Shown: positions 1 to 6,242 of the stretch, piece by piece
How the letters are laid out: every line of letters begins with the position of its first letter
Position numbering within the stretch: position 1 is the stretch's first letter
IMG/VR virus record: IMGVR_UViG_2703718819_000019
From: a virus
Taxonomy: Duplodnaviria > Heunggongvirae > Uroviricota > Caudoviricetes
DNA: 6,242 nt
Reading direction: 5' to 3' (one strand)
The notes under the pieces: model-generated
Database searches by the model: none
What the model saw: only the letters and a program-made list of their open reading frames with translations
What the model was told of the DNA's origin: nothing
Translations under genes and position numbers: made by a program

Positions 1-210
1 GCGCTTACGCCAGCCCGCAGGCAGAGCACCAGAAAAATAAAACTCACTGATTACGTCCATGGCAAACGGCTTTAAGCGCAATCCGGCAGCGCCTGTATTT
101 TTCAGTAATGCCCGAAGAATACTGTTGCGTAGCGGTAAAACAGTCTGTTGATATTTGGTGAAATATTTATTTGTCTGCACACGGTCTAATTTGAAATAAA
201 AATATGCCAT
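1..210 (-). CDS. hypothetical protein, N-terminal part only (ORF continues past the window start)
   Basis: Reverse-strand ATG at 208-210 preceded by a purine-rich Shine-Dalgarno-like stretch (AAGGAACAGGA, plus 213-227 reverse-complemented). My manual translation MAYFYFKLDRVQTNKYFTKYQQTVLPLRNSILRALLKNTGAAGLRLKPFAMDVISEFYFSGALPAGWRKR runs 70 codons to the window edge with no stop. Same direction as the upstream operon. Absent from the supplied ORF track because it has no stop inside the window. Confidence 0.4.
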   Translation of the reverse strand, partial: MAYFYFKLDRVQTNKYFTKYQQTVLPLRNSILRALLKNTGAAGLRLKPFAMDVISEFYFSGALPAGWRKR

Positions 211-307
211 ATATCCTGTTCCTTATTTTCAGTTTACAGGCGCAGGCAGTCCCCTGACGCGAGCGCCATAATTAAAACGAAGTGATATTTAATTGATTAA
301 TGCGGTG

Positions 308-838
308 TTATTTATTCAGTCCGGCGTCCTGTTCAAAAGGCTCGACATAAAAACTTTCAGCGCCTTTATTCACCTTGATACCGGCAATGCCTTTCACAGC
401 ATCCGGCTCCGCCAGGACGGCTTCCTTGTTCACTTCCTCTTTCGTGCGGATGAAACGCTCAAGCCCCATACGGCGCAGCATTTCAATCACACCTTCCACA
501 TCACGGCTGACGCTGCATGATGGCGTTCCCAGCCGCCATGACACCGTTCCGGTGGTCAGATTGGCTGTTTTGGTTTTGCCGCCGTTCGTCAGCTCATCAC
601 GGTTGGTTTTGCACCAGTCCTGAATCCCTTTAAAAAGCACTTTGATTTGCTTTTTAAGATTTTCAATCTGCGGCGTATAACGGGCGGTGATTTCTGCCAC
701 TTCGTCATTCATCGCCGTTTCCAGGCGCAGCGCCTCTCGCTGAATATCGCCCAGGGTGCGGATATCGCGGCTGACTTCTTCGCGGGTCTGCGGTGCGGCC
801 TCGGCTACAGCCTTTAATTTTGTAACGCGTTTTGCCAT
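308..838 (-). CDS. gam: Gam-like host-nuclease inhibitor / Ku-like double-strand DNA end-binding protein
   Basis: 176-aa ORF. Segments such as LGDIQREALRLETAMNDEVAEIT, WCKTNRDELTNGGKTKTANLTTGTVSWR and RFIRTKEEVNKEAVLAEP are near-collinear with phage Mu Gam (about 174 aa) as I recall it. Shine-Dalgarno AAGGA lies 8 nt upstream of the ATG (836-838). TAA stop at 308-310. Confidence 0.9.
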   Translation of the reverse strand: MAKRVTKLKAVAEAAPQTREEVSRDIRTLGDIQREALRLETAMNDEVAEITARYTPQIENLKKQIKVLFKGIQDWCKTNRDELTNGGKTKTANLTTGTVSWRLGTPSCSVSRDVEGVIEMLRRMGLERFIRTKEEVNKEAVLAEPDAVKGIAGIKVNKGAESFYVEPFEQDAGLNK

Positions 839-849
839 TTTGTTTTTCC

Positions 850-1143
850 TTATTGCAGTGTGCCTGATGCTTTATGCACGCGGTGGCGTTTAATGATGGC
901 ATCCGCTCCAAAAGACTGTGCAGATGCCTGAAATTCCGCTGAGAGAAACTGAATAATTGCAGGACTGTGATACTGGAGAATACTTGCATAAACGTCACAG
1001 AGTGACGTCGGGCTGTTATCCGTATCACGTTCTGTTTTCACATCCACTCCAATCTTTTCATGCACTTCAACACAGTCATTGCCTGCCAACTTTTCGTCAT
1101 GCGAAACATGATTAAATTCAAAAATAACGCGTACTTTGCTCAT
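850..1143 (-). CDS. small hypothetical protein, paralog 2 of an MSKV..IFEF/Y family
   Basis: The track ORF starts at 1170, but the internal ATG at 1141-1143 (MSKVRVIFEFNHV...) has an upstream AGGGG Shine-Dalgarno-like motif and begins 5 nt after the stop of the preceding ORF. Its N-terminus matches the neighbouring ORF 1148..1420 (MSKVVRIIFEYKEHV) at protein level and about 24 of 27 nt. TAA stop at 850-852. Confidence 0.6.
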   Translation of the reverse strand: MSKVRVIFEFNHVSHDEKLAGNDCVEVHEKIGVDVKTERDTDNSPTSLCDVYASILQYHSPAIIQFLSAEFQASAQSFGADAIIKRHRVHKASGTLQ

Positions 1144-1147
1144 GGAA

Positions 1148-1420
1148 TTACCCCTGCTGATTAAATTCATTACCTTTAATAACCCCGGAACGCATGCTCA
1201 TATCTTTCATGAGCGCACTGGCTTTCATTGCCACAAGTTCAGCAAAGTCTCTGCTTTCCGCGAGCATAACCACCCCAAAAATCATGGCGGGTCCATCACC
1301 TTTCTGCTTTATCCTGGTTGAACGTATGTCCAGACTTACCCCCATGCGCACTGTTCCATCAGGGTTTTTATGGATAACGTGCTCCTTGTATTCGAAAATA
1401 ATGCGTACGACTTTACTCAT
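1148..1420 (-). CDS. small hypothetical protein, paralog 1 of an MSKV..IFEF/Y family
   Basis: 90-aa ORF. ATG at 1418-1420 preceded by GAGGA with a 7-nt spacer. The start overlaps the stop of the upstream ORF as ATGA (1417-1420), indicating translational coupling. Shared N-terminal motif with ORF 850..1143. Confidence 0.6.
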   Translation of the reverse strand: MSKVVRIIFEYKEHVIHKNPDGTVRMGVSLDIRSTRIKQKGDGPAMIFGVVMLAESRDFAELVAMKASALMKDMSMRSGVIKGNEFNQQG

Positions 1421-1698
1421 CCTCTGGTCCTCGTTCTGTTTGGATAACTGACCCGGCGTCTGACCTCACGGCAGAACCGAATCATGGCATTAAAGGCTTC
1501 TTCCTCCGTCACCGCTTCCGGTATCCCCGGAACCAGTAACTGCTCCTGTTCATCACGTCCATGACGCGCCATAACCTCAATCACATGCCGTACCGTGGCA
1601 GGCTTTCCGGCAACTATCGGCAATGCACCTTCCGGCAGGACGTAACCAAACTCAATAAGACCACTCGACCACGCCCATGCAATGAGATTTCGTTTCAC
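1417..1698 (-). CDS. small hypothetical protein (GTG start)
   Basis: 93-aa ORF. The start codon is GTG (reverse complement of 1696-1698), preceded by a strong Shine-Dalgarno GGGAGGTG (plus 1701-1710 reverse-complemented). It lies in the same operon, 1 nt after the stop of the upstream ORF. No recognisable domain by eye. Confidence 0.5.
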   Translation of the reverse strand: MKRNLIAWAWSSGLIEFGYVLPEGALPIVAGKPATVRHVIEVMARHGRDEQEQLLVPGIPEAVTEEEAFNAMIRFCREVRRRVSYPNRTRTRG

Positions 1699-1699
1699 C

Positions 1700-1954
1700 T
1701 CACACCTCCCAGCAAACCGTGCAGCCGCTGATGCGGGTGGCCTTCACACGGCGGCGCAGGCCGTTGGTCTGTATGGTGATTTCAATTTCACCGGTTCCCT
1801 GCACGTTGCCTACCGGCGGCGTGGTTTTCAGTGCAAAACGTTGCGGATAGCGCTTACTGCGTTCCAGTACCGCACCGGCAAGTTCGGTCAGACGGCGCGC
1901 GCTGTTCAGGGAGTCGAATAAATTCATTTTGTTACCGCAGGATTGCATATTCAT
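1700..1954 (-). CDS. small hypothetical protein
   Basis: The track ORF is 1700..1966. I prefer the in-frame ATG at 1952-1954 (MNMQSCGNK...) because GAGGTG sits 6 nt upstream, whereas the ATG at 1966 has no Shine-Dalgarno. The C-terminus carries a CxxC pair (CTVC). TGA stop at 1700-1702. Confidence 0.45.
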   Translation of the reverse strand: MNMQSCGNKMNLFDSLNSARRLTELAGAVLERSKRYPQRFALKTTPPVGNVQGTGEIEITIQTNGLRRRVKATRISGCTVCWEV

Positions 1955-1966
1955 ATAACACCTCAT

Positions 1967-2194
1967 TTAGCTGACTTGTTTCGCACCAACAGAACGGCAT
2001 ATTCCGCTGTAAACGTCTGTCGCACCTTCGCGATCAAGTCCGGCAGATATCACCATTCGTGTGCGGTCATTAAATTCAAAAAGTAAATCGCCACATTCTT
2101 TATTTTCGGCCAGTGAAATCACCTTCACGTTATCGAAATTAACCAGGTAAAAGCGTCCGTAAATATCAGGAATATTAAATACCGCCATAATCAC
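1967..2194 (-). CDS. small hypothetical protein in the position occupied by kil in phage Mu (immediately downstream of B)
   Basis: 75-aa ORF whose ATG overlaps the B stop as ATGA (2191-2194). It contains an internal LLFEFNDRTRMV segment related to the N-termini of ORFs 850..1143 and 1148..1420, and shares an identical 14-nt string with the former (2069-2082 vs 1111-1124). The Kil analogy is positional only; I cannot verify sequence similarity. Confidence 0.5.
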   Translation of the reverse strand: MIMAVFNIPDIYGRFYLVNFDNVKVISLAENKECGDLLFEFNDRTRMVISAGLDREGATDVYSGICRSVGAKQVS

Positions 2195-3123
2195 ACCTGT
2201 GAGAGTAATTCAGGGTTGGTATAAACCTCTTTAAAGGCCGCATTAATATGTTTTTCTGTCAGCGCCGCGCCTTCACCGCTGGCGGTGAGCCACGCCTGGT
2301 TAAGCGTATGTGTCAGAACGCGTAACGCTCCCGGCTTTTCAGCGATAGCCTGCATGACGGCCAGCTCGGCCTCACCACTGATCTCCCACGCCCTGGCAAT
2401 GGCCAGCACATCCGCCTTTTTGGCCTTGCGAAGTTGTTTTGTACGGGCAAGACGGCTGAACAGGCGCGATAAATCATCAAAGGCGCGGCGTCCACCTTTA
2501 AACAATCCGCGCGGGTTACCAATAAGCACCATCCCGATCCCCGTGGCGTCCTGAATTGCCCGGAGTTGCTCCAGACCGTCAATACCAAGATGATCCGCCT
2601 CATCCACAATCACCAGTCCACGCGTTCCCATCAGGCGACGGCGGATGGCGCGGGATAATGCCCCTTTGTTCGCGCGGGTGTAATCAATCCCCAGCGCATC
2701 GGCCAGCTCCAGCAGACACTCCGTGACGCTGGAGTGCGCGGGTGACAGGGTGATCATCCAGGTGTTTGGTTGCTCCTGGCAGTAATTACGGGCAGTGGCC
2801 GTTTTACCCACACCCGGTACGCCCACAATAACGTTAATACAGCCCATCAGACGAACCGCCTGAAACAGTGCGCGCAGCTCCTGGACTGTCTGCGTTTCCA
2901 CAAACTGCGGCGGTTCCGGCAGTGCGCTTTGTTTATTCCAGTTCTCATACCAGGAACGCAGGGAAGCAGCCACAGCAGCGTTATCGCCTTTATATTTTCC
3001 CTTACGGAAAGCCGATAATGTGCCGTCGGAAATTCCCGCCTCTCTGGCGATGGCATACTGCGTCAGTACGCCGCCATCAATAAGTTCATCAATGGTCTTG
3101 ATTACATCGTTAATATCAGTCAT
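2191..3123 (-). CDS. B: MuB-like AAA+ ATPase, transposition target-DNA activator
   Basis: 310-aa ORF. N-terminal HTH-like region (LTQYAIAREAGISDGTLSAF), Walker A GVPGVGKT, Walker B LVIVDEADHL, and overall collinearity with phage Mu B (312 aa) as recalled, including the PEPPQFVETQTV and KKADV..IA.AW segments. Shine-Dalgarno GAGAGG 8 nt upstream of the ATG at 3121-3123. Confidence 0.92.
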   Translation of the reverse strand: MTDINDVIKTIDELIDGGVLTQYAIAREAGISDGTLSAFRKGKYKGDNAAVAASLRSWYENWNKQSALPEPPQFVETQTVQELRALFQAVRLMGCINVIVGVPGVGKTATARNYCQEQPNTWMITLSPAHSSVTECLLELADALGIDYTRANKGALSRAIRRRLMGTRGLVIVDEADHLGIDGLEQLRAIQDATGIGMVLIGNPRGLFKGGRRAFDDLSRLFSRLARTKQLRKAKKADVLAIARAWEISGEAELAVMQAIAEKPGALRVLTHTLNQAWLTASGEGAALTEKHINAAFKEVYTNPELLSQV

Positions 3124-3194
3124 ATTATTAACCTCTCATTTGATACCTTGTTTAATCAAATAACCTGAGTCGCCGCTCGGGTTATTTTTTTATT

Positions 3195-5303
3195 TCAGGC
3201 CAGCGGGTCATTTTCTTTTAATTTCGCTTCCAGCAACTGCAATCCCCGCTGGAAATTACGCTCGTATTCTTCATCAGGTTCATCGTCAGCGACCGGTTGC
3301 TGAACGGTCACCGTATTACCCACAGGGCGGTATATGTTTTCCAGCCAGGGCCCCTGTGGCTTGTGCTCCAGCACGTTGACAACCTCATCCTCGGCATCAC
3401 GGATTTTTTCCTCTGCGCGTTTACGCATGCCTTTAAGGCGCTGCTGCTGTTTATGGTATTCCGCGCTGACCGGGAAGGCTTCGCGTTTATTGCCGTCCCA
3501 TACCGCCTCGCAAATCACACTGCCATCCAGGCGACGCACGGTAATTCGCTCAGCATCATGAATGTCATAGCTGATAAGCACCTTACGACCATGCTCGTCA
3601 CGCAGCTCGGGCGCGTAGTAAATATTATTCAGCCAGCGTATTTCACAGCGTCTTACAGGGCGCTCCACCATCGGCCGGAACATATCCCGCAGCTCAACAT
3701 CGGACAGCCATTCAATTTCCGTGTCCTCTTCTGCCAGGCGTTTTTTTCTGAACTCCGCCGGGCTGTAATGCTTCCCGTTCGGCTTCATGGGTAATTCATC
3801 GTGCGGCCGGTTGTTGTACCACTCAACACCATCACGAATGGCATCAATCAGTTCAGACCAGGACGGTAAATCACGCATCGCTGACTGCTGCCGGGCGTTC
3901 AGCCGCTTGCCCTGTTGCAGGGCAGTGAATGCCGAGCGTAAATCGCGGTTGGTTTTGCGTAACGTCTCGCGATCTGCACCTTTCCCGAAATAGGTGCGGT
4001 ATCTGCGGGCTATGCGCATCGGTAATGTGCGGTTAAGCCGTTCGATAATGCCCCGTCCCTGCGGATTACCGGCAATCCCGGTCGGGTGATTAATCCCCAG
4101 TCGCGGTAGTATCCCCACAATCTCCTTATCCAGGATGTCGGCGGTTTCCCCGGAGCCATTATCCGAGTAATACAGAAACGGTTTGCCGTGATGGCGAATG
4201 CCGTGCTGTATAGCACCGGCTACGGCGAAAACATTTTCAGCCAGGTCAAGGCTCCAGCCCACCACAAAGCGTGTACCGCCATCGATAACAAAGGTTACTT
4301 CCGGTGCAAATGGCCGCCCGTGAACCGGGTGCCTGCATTTCAGCTTCATGCCGTGACCGTCACCAATCCAGACATAGTTCACCGGCATTCTGGACCAGTC
4401 GCGGCGCGTGAATCCCTCAAGCTGGCGGTATTCACTGCCGGTCACCCGGCCTTTTTGTTTCACCACTTCCGGCAGTTTCTTCATTGCGCGGCGAATGGTG
4501 TCATAAGACGGCATGATATCGAGCATATAAGGCTCATCAGCGTGCCGGTGCTGCCATTCAGCGACAAAATCCTCGTAAGCCTCGGTCATTGGTCGGCCGT
4601 TTGACTGGCGATACTGCGCCAGAAATTCGGGCAGCCAGTTAATATCTTCGGCTTTTATTTCCTGGCGCTTACCCGGTGCCAGTAAAAGCAGGCGTTCAGC
4701 GGCGTTCTGCGCCTTGTTAAAGGCCGCAATCCAGCGTTTCAGCGTGATTTCACTTAACGCGCGGCTGTTTCCCTTTTTGGCGTTCGCCGTCTCAACCATT
4801 GCCACAATGCGCTCGTCCAGCTGCGAACGTGCCAGGTTGTCAACGATAAACCGGATAGCCTTCGCACAGCTGAAACCAGGTTGTTGCGCGACTTTCAGAA
4901 CTTCGCTGACGATCGCGATTCGTGCATCAGCCACCTGGCGCTGGTTTTCAGTCAGGGCATTGAGGCGTTCGACCATCAGTTGTGGTGATCCGCGATATGC
5001 CTCCACCGCATCAACCACGGCAGGTGAGCGTCTGGCCTTTGTCACCACCGGAGCCGGTGATTCATCGGCTTTTTGCGTCATCAGTTGCAGGGCGTAGCGT
5101 TCACGTACTGCCTGCTGAACAGTTAAAGGCAAAGCACCTATTTCACACTCTAAAACTTTCCCTTTTACCCCTGGTTTTAGCCGCGTTTTCCACGCCTCCC
5201 TCTTTGCTTTTTTGTGCAGACCTGCCAAAGAACTAGGTAGGTCACTGAATGAAATCAATTCAGTCATTGCAACCCACATATTTCCTCCGCGCACGTCGTT
5301 CAT
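3195..5303 (-). CDS. A: MuA-like DDE transposase
   Basis: 702-aa ORF. N-terminal winged-helix-like motif DLPSSLAGLHKKAKREAWKTR (the enhancer/operator-binding domain in MuA). Central DDE candidates in WIGDGHG, YYSDNGSGE and GRGIIERLNRT. Size and position match Mu A. The true start is probably the ATG at 5277-5279 (MWVAMTEL...), which has GGAGGA immediately upstream; the track start at 5303 has no Shine-Dalgarno. TGA stop at 3195-3197. Confidence 0.93.
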   Translation of the reverse strand: MNDVRGGNMWVAMTELISFSDLPSSLAGLHKKAKREAWKTRLKPGVKGKVLECEIGALPLTVQQAVRERYALQLMTQKADESPAPVVTKARRSPAVVDAVEAYRGSPQLMVERLNALTENQRQVADARIAIVSEVLKVAQQPGFSCAKAIRFIVDNLARSQLDERIVAMVETANAKKGNSRALSEITLKRWIAAFNKAQNAAERLLLLAPGKRQEIKAEDINWLPEFLAQYRQSNGRPMTEAYEDFVAEWQHRHADEPYMLDIMPSYDTIRRAMKKLPEVVKQKGRVTGSEYRQLEGFTRRDWSRMPVNYVWIGDGHGMKLKCRHPVHGRPFAPEVTFVIDGGTRFVVGWSLDLAENVFAVAGAIQHGIRHHGKPFLYYSDNGSGETADILDKEIVGILPRLGINHPTGIAGNPQGRGIIERLNRTLPMRIARRYRTYFGKGADRETLRKTNRDLRSAFTALQQGKRLNARQQSAMRDLPSWSELIDAIRDGVEWYNNRPHDELPMKPNGKHYSPAEFRKKRLAEEDTEIEWLSDVELRDMFRPMVERPVRRCEIRWLNNIYYAPELRDEHGRKVLISYDIHDAERITVRRLDGSVICEAVWDGNKREAFPVSAEYHKQQQRLKGMRKRAEEKIRDAEDEVVNVLEHKPQGPWLENIYRPVGNTVTVQQPVADDEPDEEYERNFQRGLQLLEAKLKENDPLA

Positions 5304-5505
5304 ATCTAGTAGGCCAAATAACTTGCGGCTCTACACCTATAGCCCTAGCAATAATCTTTTCACCTTTAGGGTAGGGAACTCGCAAAGCATTACCCAAAGT
5401 CCTAGGCTGCAAATTATTTTCCCTTGATAAACGTGACAAATTGGTATCGCGTTTTTCTAAGGCTGCCTTTATATCGGCGGAAGACCAATCTTCAATAAGA
5501 CTCAC
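5260..5505 (-). CDS. ner: Ner-like DNA-binding transcriptional regulator (Ner/Nlp family)
   Basis: 81-aa ORF. The PYPKGEKIIARAIGVEPQVIWPTRY segment matches the conserved core of Mu Ner and E. coli Nlp (..WPKGE.IIA.ALG..P..IWPSRY). GTG start at 5503-5505 preceded by AGGGGG with a 5-nt spacer. It is the first gene of the early operon and its 3' end overlaps the 5' end of A. Confidence 0.85.
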   Translation of the reverse strand: MSLIEDWSSADIKAALEKRDTNLSRLSRENNLQPRTLGNALRVPYPKGEKIIARAIGVEPQVIWPTRYERRARRKYVGCND

Positions 5506-5540
5506 AATGGCCCCCTGTGTACTTTCTATGGCAAACTTTA

Positions 5541-5579
5541 TTACTCATGTGTGCTACTCTATTGAGTTACTCACTAGTG
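5541..5579. repeat. three tandem 13-bp direct repeats (TTACTCATGTGTG / CTACTCTATTGAG / TTACTCACTAGTG), candidate operator or iteron-like sites
   Basis: Read directly from the sequence: the TACTC core recurs at 5542, 5555 and 5568, an exact 13-bp phase, and 8 of 13 positions are invariant (yTACTCwnnnGnG). A fourth TTACTC lies at 5644-5649. Confidence 0.5.
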
Positions 5580-5589
5580 TATGTTTGAT

Positions 5590-5618
5590 ATATTAGATAT
5601 TAACTAAGTAAATATCAA
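5590..5618 (-). promoter_or_regulatory. candidate early promoter (Pe-like) for the ner-A-B operon
   Basis: On the minus strand, -35 TTGATA (plus 5613-5618), a 17-nt spacer and -10 TAATAT (plus 5590-5595), about 80 nt upstream of the ner GTG. The -35 hexamer overlaps the IHF consensus match, so the two assignments compete. Confidence 0.35.
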
Positions 5619-5625
5619 CCGGTTA
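5613..5625 (+). promoter_or_regulatory. candidate IHF binding site
   Basis: TATCAACCGGTTA matches the IHF core consensus WATCAANNNNTTR at every defined position, with an AT-rich tract immediately 5'. In Mu, IHF binds within the operator region and stimulates Pe (established knowledge). Confidence 0.4.
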
Positions 5626-5735
5626 ATTTCAAATTCCTTAGATTTACTCGATATCTATTTGTTTTATATTAGATTATTTTTGAAATAAACCACAGAAGAG
5701 ATATGAACAAAAGTTAATATCAAATGGAGTTTGAT

Positions 5736-6242
5736 ATGATCCTTGACCAAGAATGGATCCTTGCCAGTGACTTGTTGGGGGTTGGAGGTCTTCCTTCATC
5801 TCTGGCTGGGCTTCATAAACGAGCAAAAAATGAAGGATGGGAAAAACGTTCGGTAACTACACCCGGTATCAGAGGGAGAGCATTTGCCTACCGTTTAAGC
5901 GACTTACCTGCACATGTAGTTTCCATCATTACAGGTAGTGCAGAAATAAAACACCAAGCCCCTAAAAAGAACGGTGGCAATAGCGAGTTGCTCGAACTCA
6001 TCGACACCTTGAACCAAGAAGAGCAAGAATTAGTTATTTACACCTTGAGAAGGAAAGGGGTAGAAAAATTGCTGGAATTCTGCAATCAAGAGAATCAAGA
6101 GCTGATCGCTTTAACAGGTATTCGACGCCTGGCAGCATTGAGCCTCAATAATTTATCAGATCAAAAGGTTAGAGAGATTTTCGAGGGAGATGAAACCAAG
6201 GATCATCATTTCAATCTAACCCATAAAGAAGCCAAAGCGTAA
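5736..6242 (+). CDS. c: Mu repressor c-like protein (Rep/CI of transposable phages)
   Basis: The track ORF is 5724..6242. GGAG at 5726-5729 sits 6 nt before the ATG at 5736, so 5736 is the more likely start. The N-terminal motif GLPSSLAGLHKRAKNEGWEKR parallels the transposase N-terminus (DLPSSLAGLHKKAKREAWKTR), the known Mu Rep/MuA shared DNA-binding domain. Divergent orientation from ner. TAA stop at 6240-6242. Confidence 0.8.
   Translation: MILDQEWILASDLLGVGGLPSSLAGLHKRAKNEGWEKRSVTTPGIRGRAFAYRLSDLPAHVVSIITGSAEIKHQAPKKNGGNSELLELIDTLNQEEQELVIYTLRRKGVEKLLEFCNQENQELIALTGIRRLAALSLNNLSDQKVREIFEGDETKDHHFNLTHKEAKA

Follow-up and report, generated by a model that had tools for sequence, protein, structure and literature searches.

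The DNA analysed here, called the window throughout, is the whole 6,242-nucleotide stretch from IMG/VR virus record IMGVR_UViG_2703718819_000019, and it is the early (left-end) region of a Mu-like Escherichia coli prophage. The open reading frame (ORF) list and a Pfam scan place on it a Mu-type early region in reverse orientation, in the order c, operator, ner, A, B and gam: a divergent c gene is followed by ner, a DDE transposase with the Mu C-terminal domain, a MuB ATPase and gam. A preliminary description of this DNA had called a c repressor and an A transposase, and both calls are borne out by the Pfam families and the Mu gene order. Our subject is the DNA-binding domain with which both proteins begin. 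The features that carry the argument are:

3195 to 5279, minus strand: A transposase gene, 694 residues, with PF02316 and Mu-transpos_C (PF09299) above cut-off.
5118 to 5279, minus strand: N-terminal domain of A, residues 1-54, equivalent to MuA domain I-alpha (PF02316, 32.4 bits).
5181 to 5243, minus strand: 21-residue motif DLPSSLAGLHKKAKREAWKTR, residues 13-33 of the 694-residue A.
5736 to 6242, plus strand: c repressor gene, 168 residues, with PF02316 at its N-terminus.
5754 to 5933, plus strand: N-terminal winged helix-turn-helix domain of c, residues 7-66, placed by an AlphaFold model and by fold and sequence matches.
5787 to 5849, plus strand: 21-residue motif GLPSSLAGLHKRAKNEGWEKR, residues 18-38 of the 168-residue c, covering the turn and recognition helix and the first part of the wing strand.

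The two 21-residue motifs are identical at 15 positions (71%) and differ conservatively at two more. The preliminary description had called these peptides nearly identical and the degree of identity striking. Both are indeed present and match far beyond chance, with the A copy where it had been placed, but the c copy lies about 10 nt to the right of the 5775-5840 given for it, beyond the end at 5800 that had been claimed for the feature. "Nearly identical" mildly overstates 15 of 21, and the degree is unexceptional, given that phage D108 has 14 of 21 in the same columns. By BLASTP the similarity extends well past the motif, aligning A residues 10-62 with c residues 11-65 (long-ORF numbering) at 23/55 identities (42%, E=4e-12); chance or low complexity as the source of the peptide match is ruled out by this value together with independent Pfam and PDB matches. 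Both proteins exceed the 23.3-bit gathering threshold of PF02316 (HTH_Tnp_Mu_1, the Mu DNA-binding domain found as MuA I-alpha and at the Mu repressor N-terminus), A with 34.5 bits and c with 30.8 bits as full proteins, and with 32.4 and 29.1 bits when only the first 80 residues are scored.

Comparison with known structures leads to the same family. Sequence comparison aligns each N-terminus over about 55-60 residues with two solved domains, that of the Mu repressor (1G4D/1QPM) and MuA I-alpha (1TNS/1TNT); for A residues 1-59 the matches are to 1TNS (E=1.6e-6) and 1G4D (E=1.8e-6), and for the c domain to 1G4D (E=4e-5) and 1TNS (E=1.2e-4). Modelled by AlphaFold with 14 homologues, c shows strand 7-9, helix 10-13, helix 23-33, strand 37-40, strand 49-53 and helix 59-66, with a predicted local distance difference test score (pLDDT) of 76-88 over the block. 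This is a strand-helix-helix-strand-wing-strand-helix layout in which residues 23-33 form the recognition helix. The top two PDB fold matches of this domain are 1TNS (E=6e-4, template modelling (TM) score 0.60) and 1QPM (E=3e-3, TM score 0.66, root-mean-square deviation 3.3). The strongest identity between A and c is confined to the peptide, yet its flanks are not unrelated folds and belong to the same family in both proteins. Judged from their sequences, c and A of this phage therefore carry homologous N-terminal DNA-binding domains, as in immunity of the Mu/D108 type.

To ask how the two domains vary together, we drew on 95 related loci and two more reached through c homologues, set against Mu and D108. 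A neighbour-joining tree built from 17 N-domains groups c and A by phage lineage and not by protein, with bootstrap support for the c+A grouping of 88% in the window lineage (the window and loci L048 and L050), 91% in D108 and 45% in Mu. The lineage signal is plainest in motif columns 6-11, which are alike in c and A of one lineage and unlike between lineages:

Window: A LAGLHK, c LAGLHK.
L100: A VQGVNQ, c IQGIHK.
Mu: A SAGVIY, c VAGVHY.
D108: A ATNITR, c ATNITR.

Across the motif columns, c-A identity within one phage is 0.71 for the window and averages 0.58 over four lineages, and the true pairing of c with A ranks first of the 24 possible pairings. One alternative to a specific match is that the shared peptide reflects family-wide conservation of the winged helix-turn-helix only, so that c and A recognise different DNA and do not compete. 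Such conservation is real, since the motif residues LP, G, A, W and R are kept throughout the family, Mu and D108 included. It does not, however, account for own-phage identities above every cross-phage pairing (mean 0.38, maximum 0.48), nor for columns that are specific to a lineage and nevertheless common to its c and A. We regard this alternative as unlikely.

The distribution of identity along the domain differs between phages:

Window: 15/21 (71%) in the 21 motif columns, 7/29 (24%) in the rest of the domain.
Mu: 10/21 in the motif columns, 15/30 in the rest.
D108: 14/21 in the motif columns, 15/29 in the rest.

Because the window falls to background level outside the motif, while identity is evenly spread in Mu and D108, its excess is centred on the DNA-reading element. 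Conversion over a short tract could give such a protein pattern, and the preliminary description had proposed recent co-evolution or domain exchange within the cassette. At the DNA level this proposal fails. Between A and c, 40 of the 63 nucleotides in the 21 motif codons agree, and the third base is shared at only 6 of the 15 identical residues. Synonymous differences reach a proportion of 0.86 within the motif and 0.76 for the 52 aligned codons of the domain, which amounts to saturation, and the longest nucleotide run common to the two domains is 8. Saturated synonymous sites and so short a common run exclude recent conversion or exchange between the 5' ends of c and A. Moreover, the cassettes of L048/L050 and L102 show the same differences between c and A, so the split is older than those lineages; a recent exchange is thus extremely improbable. 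Within the window lineage c and A form separate sub-clades (c-c 75%, A-A 68%, c-A 44-48%), which indicates an old split that predates divergence from the Salmonella-type relatives.

We consider it probable that the two N-domains are old paralogues whose DNA-reading parts have been kept matched by selection for common sites between c and ner. Each protein would begin with a Mu-family winged helix-turn-helix domain (PF02316) of about 55 residues, and selection would keep the recognition helix LAGLHK[KR]AK and the basic wing PG[VI][KR]G[KR] alike in both, so that c and A could read one set of sites. The candidate sites lie in the control region, where an 11-mer, TTGAWATWWAC, recurs five times:

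5506 to 5735, no strand: divergent control region (operator, presumed enhancer), the 230-bp gap between the divergent genes c and ner, with five TTGAWATWWAC copies and promoter-like hexamers on both strands.
5713 to 5723, minus strand: predicted binding site 1, TTGATATTAAC, an exact match 13 nt upstream of the c start codon, its position kept in L020, L048 and L050.
5680 to 5690, plus strand: predicted binding site 2, TTGAAATAAAC, a TTGAWATWWAC copy.
5622 to 5632, minus strand: predicted binding site 3, TTGAAATTAAC, a TTGAWATWWAC copy.
5608 to 5618, minus strand: predicted binding site 4, TTGATATTTAC, overlapping the -35 of the leftward promoter-like site.
5594 to 5604, plus strand: predicted binding site 5, TAGATATTAAC, with one mismatch, overlapping the -10 of the leftward promoter-like site.
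5590 to 5618, minus strand: promoter-like site facing ner-A-B, an early-promoter candidate found by consensus scan only (TTGATA, 17 nt, TAATAT).

The 230-bp gap holds four exact copies and one with a single mismatch, against 0.014 and 0.175 expected from local dinucleotide shuffles, and all exact copies in the window lie inside it. All five positions are kept in the diverged L048/L050 cassettes despite changed spacers, and the word also recurs, by eye, in the operator sequence of L102. Among the 11 other cassette types the word is never matched exactly and is matched once with one mismatch; the control regions of Mu and D108 yield neither kind of match. The promoter-like scan is weak, returning 2 sites against 1.7 expected in shuffles. 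The 9-mer core GAWATWWAC also occurs outside the operator, at 2135-2143, 2159-2167, 3109-3117 and 4638-4646; we took these copies as chance occurrences, as all lie in backbone common to other cassettes, and those at 3109 and 4638 encode Asp-Ile-Asn in B and A, respectively. An integration host factor (IHF) site was also considered and set aside as too weak: the single window match to the consensus WATCAANNNNTTR, at 5613-5625 between two predicted sites, is one base off in L048/L050.

Two further features were seen in or near this region. At 5560-5577 the window and the diverged L048/L050 cassettes have in common an unchanged block, CACTAGTGAGTAACTCA, which includes two small palindromes, CACTAGTG and GAGTAACTC; it lies near the start of ner and may be a Ner site or belong to the early leader. 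Beyond the window, three copies of the repeat GTATCAAA stand near the prophage left end in both cassette types (L002 8743-9047 and L001 9288-9559) and are presumably transposase end-binding sites. They have a TTGATA core in common with the operator 11-mer.

The inheritance of the A N-domain adds a further line of evidence. A sharp mosaic junction divides the window:

5117/5118, no strand: mosaic junction between the backbone (1-5117, 52% guanine-cytosine content (GC)) and the immunity cassette (5118-6242, 40% GC), where similarity to other prophages stops.

The junction falls at A residue 54/55, directly after the N-domain. By megablast the backbone is present in 245 of 5426 complete E. coli genomes, and most matches end exactly at 5117, where about 230 other E. 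coli prophages lose similarity. Only 13 of the 245 genomes carry the segment 5118-6242, which is in no phage-collection record; a distant DNA search with 5100-6242 was likewise empty. Prophages that are 97-98% identical over A(55-694)-B-gam are wholly different in A(1-54), ner, operator and c, and identity returns only beyond the window, in the terminal ~88 bp at the left end of the prophage, where the two cassette types are 96.6% identical. The sharp break of both similarity and GC argues that the A N-domain, ner, operator and c travel as one immunity cassette. The A N-domain is exchanged alongside c and the operator and not with the rest of A, which again speaks against a purely structural reason for the shared peptide. 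In this phage group c, operator and A N-domain differ together, as in heteroimmune relatives, to judge from the junction and the co-variation of the helices. If protein and sites must match, the A N-domain would be co-inherited with ner, operator and c, as part of an exchangeable cassette spanning 5118-6242 and slightly beyond. The junction has its counterpart in L001 at 8117-8118; many E. coli prophages are 97-98% identical on one side of it and show no identity on the other.

Sister cassettes show that the repressor is modular. Among the 53 related loci that have both genes, the transposase carries a Mu-type N-domain in every one (53/53) and the repressor in only six, belonging to just two cassette types. 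The sister repressors instead have a helix-turn-helix with sub-threshold matches to HTH_23 or Phage_CI_repr and no similarity to the N-domain of their own A. Their C-termini are nevertheless related to that of the window c, whose last 90 residues are 40% identical to them (E=3e-17); the C-terminal half of the window c has no detectable similarity to the Mu c C-terminus. Both observations would fit an ancestral copying event in which a copy of the A N-domain took the place of the DNA-binding domain of c, or a copy of the c domain that of the A N-domain, and then decayed except in the DNA-reading helix. The whole-domain tree, with its 88% support for c and A of the window lineage as sisters, would fit as well. 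When the motif columns are left out, however, this grouping drops to 40%, so its signal may reflect selection acting on the helix instead of common descent. With that support and about 29 columns, the two histories are inseparable in the tree. Taking the evidence together, we judge such a copy to be very unlikely. At L017 3001-3150 (Shigella flexneri CP182556), a separate locus away from any full transposase match, a 50-residue stretch also matches the transposase N-domain at 42% identity; its product may be another repressor-type or orphan PF02316 protein.

Several points weigh against old paralogues kept matched for common sites. Outside the motif, c-A identity in the window (7/29) is no higher than that of A with any other family member, and c has a two-residue insertion before the wing. 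The trees rest on about 50 columns, and the single-sequence AlphaFold model of the A N-domain is too poor for use (mean pLDDT 55). The 11-mer was defined from the control region itself, which makes its statistics post hoc. When the most-repeated operator word was tested without bias, 8-mers gave no significant result (7 against 5.3) and 9-mers a modest one at most (6 against 3.3, maximum 8). Since this test is weak, the case for the 11-mer rests on its positional conservation and cassette specificity. The word could also be read by Ner, or by one of c and A alone. Finally, in 47 of the 53 loci a Mu-type N-domain in A is accompanied by a repressor with an unrelated DNA-binding domain (for example L001 8703-9287, L005, L008, L026 and L044), so this phage group can do without shared recognition. 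The background-level identity outside the motif and the many relatives that function with a repressor domain unrelated to the A N-domain are also what family-wide structural conservation would predict.

The remaining genes and the gene boundaries agree with a Mu-type early region:

5260 to 5505, minus strand: ner-like gene, 81 residues (PF13693 HTH_35, E=6.7e-27).
2191 to 3123, minus strand: B transposition ATPase gene (PF09077 Phage-MuB_C and AAA_22).
308 to 838, minus strand: gam gene (PF07352 Phage_Mu_Gam, E=5.6e-42).

Several small ORFs are also listed on the minus strand. Longer ORFs begin at 5724 for c and at 5303 for A. The shorter starts are favoured by a GGAG 6 nt before the c ATG at 5736 and by a GGAGG preceding the A ATG at 5279, and both starts are used by the RefSeq annotation of a 97.9% identical prophage. 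The stop codon of c ends on the last base of the window. Matches of A to rve in Pfam are weak and below cut-off, and homologues of c fall into 27 clusters across E. coli, Shigella and Salmonella.

Mu provides the model for how the matched domains might work. The MuA N-terminal domain binds the Mu enhancer, which overlaps operators O1-O3 (PMC3145075). On this basis we infer, by analogy, that c and A compete for common sites in the window and that its control region serves as an enhancer. Bound at the predicted sites, c would shut off the early promoter, as in Mu, and would also block the A N-domain from the same region in its role as transposition enhancer. On this reading the predicted 11-mer would be read by both c and A. 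The Mu paradigm invoked in the preliminary description is supported in these respects: the N-termini of c and A are members of the Mu winged helix-turn-helix family, and the gene order, the repeated 11-mer and the co-variation of the recognition helices fit it.

As a discovery this carries little weight; its value lies in the material it offers for experiments. In E. coli prophages one near-identical transposase backbone is found fused, at one exact position, to several immunity cassettes, and the window's cassette has a Mu-type matched c/A pair. Such a set of prophages could test how far repressor-enhancer competition of the Mu kind depends on the shared domain, and it could reveal which recognition-helix residues set operator specificity. 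It is possible, although we offer the idea only tentatively, that the prophages form a natural series in which site sharing of the Mu type has been gained, maintained through selection on a few residues, or dispensed with. The helix alone would have been kept in step in the window (71% against 24%), most sisters would have swapped the repressor domain, and that swappable domain was perhaps captured from the transposase.

The N-terminal domain shared by the repressor and transposase of Mu is textbook knowledge and the basis of a Pfam family. The window is accordingly a new example of a long-known arrangement, not a new mechanism. The reference list of PMC3820752 dates the publication of the c/A N-terminal similarity in Mu and D108 to 1985-86 (references 51 and 52), and Mu and D108 are cited there as heteroimmune, differing in c, ner, operator and the A N-terminus (Mizuuchi, Weisberg & Mizuuchi 1986, cited in PMC3820752). 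Like the window, Mu has the PF02316 fold family at the N-termini of c and A (1QPM/1G4D and 1TNS/1TNT), the order c, operator, ner, A and B, and multiple repeated sites between c and ner, which in the window are predicted sites, some of them overlapped by candidate promoter-like hexamers. The window differs in that its domains are only 32-38% identical to those of Mu, in that the predicted TTGAWATWWAC is absent from the Mu control region, in the C-terminal half of c, and in the concentration of c-A identity in the motif, which in Mu is about 50% both inside and outside it.

D108 stands to Mu much as the window stands within its own population, in that the recognition helices of c and A match within one phage and differ between phages (14/21 in D108, 15/21 in the window). 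The sequences and the predicted operator word of the window are different from those of D108, however, and the c-A similarity of D108 spans the whole domain (15/29 outside the motif). Assignment to SfMu was rejected, since the SfMu paper describes a D108-like c and ner, which places that phage in a different group. Copies of this Mu-like prophage sit inside other prophages: one truncates a tail gene in strain 48 (L002 9041-9517), and two lie within Shiga toxin (Stx)-converting phages (LC727881 and LC727895). Also among the closest known systems are the Mu-like prophages of Shiga-toxin-producing E. coli (LC727881, annotated as "inserted Bacteriophage Mu-like phage"), whose backbone is 95-98% identical to positions 1-5117 of the window, whereas most of them carry other immunity cassettes, with an unrelated helix-turn-helix in the repressor.

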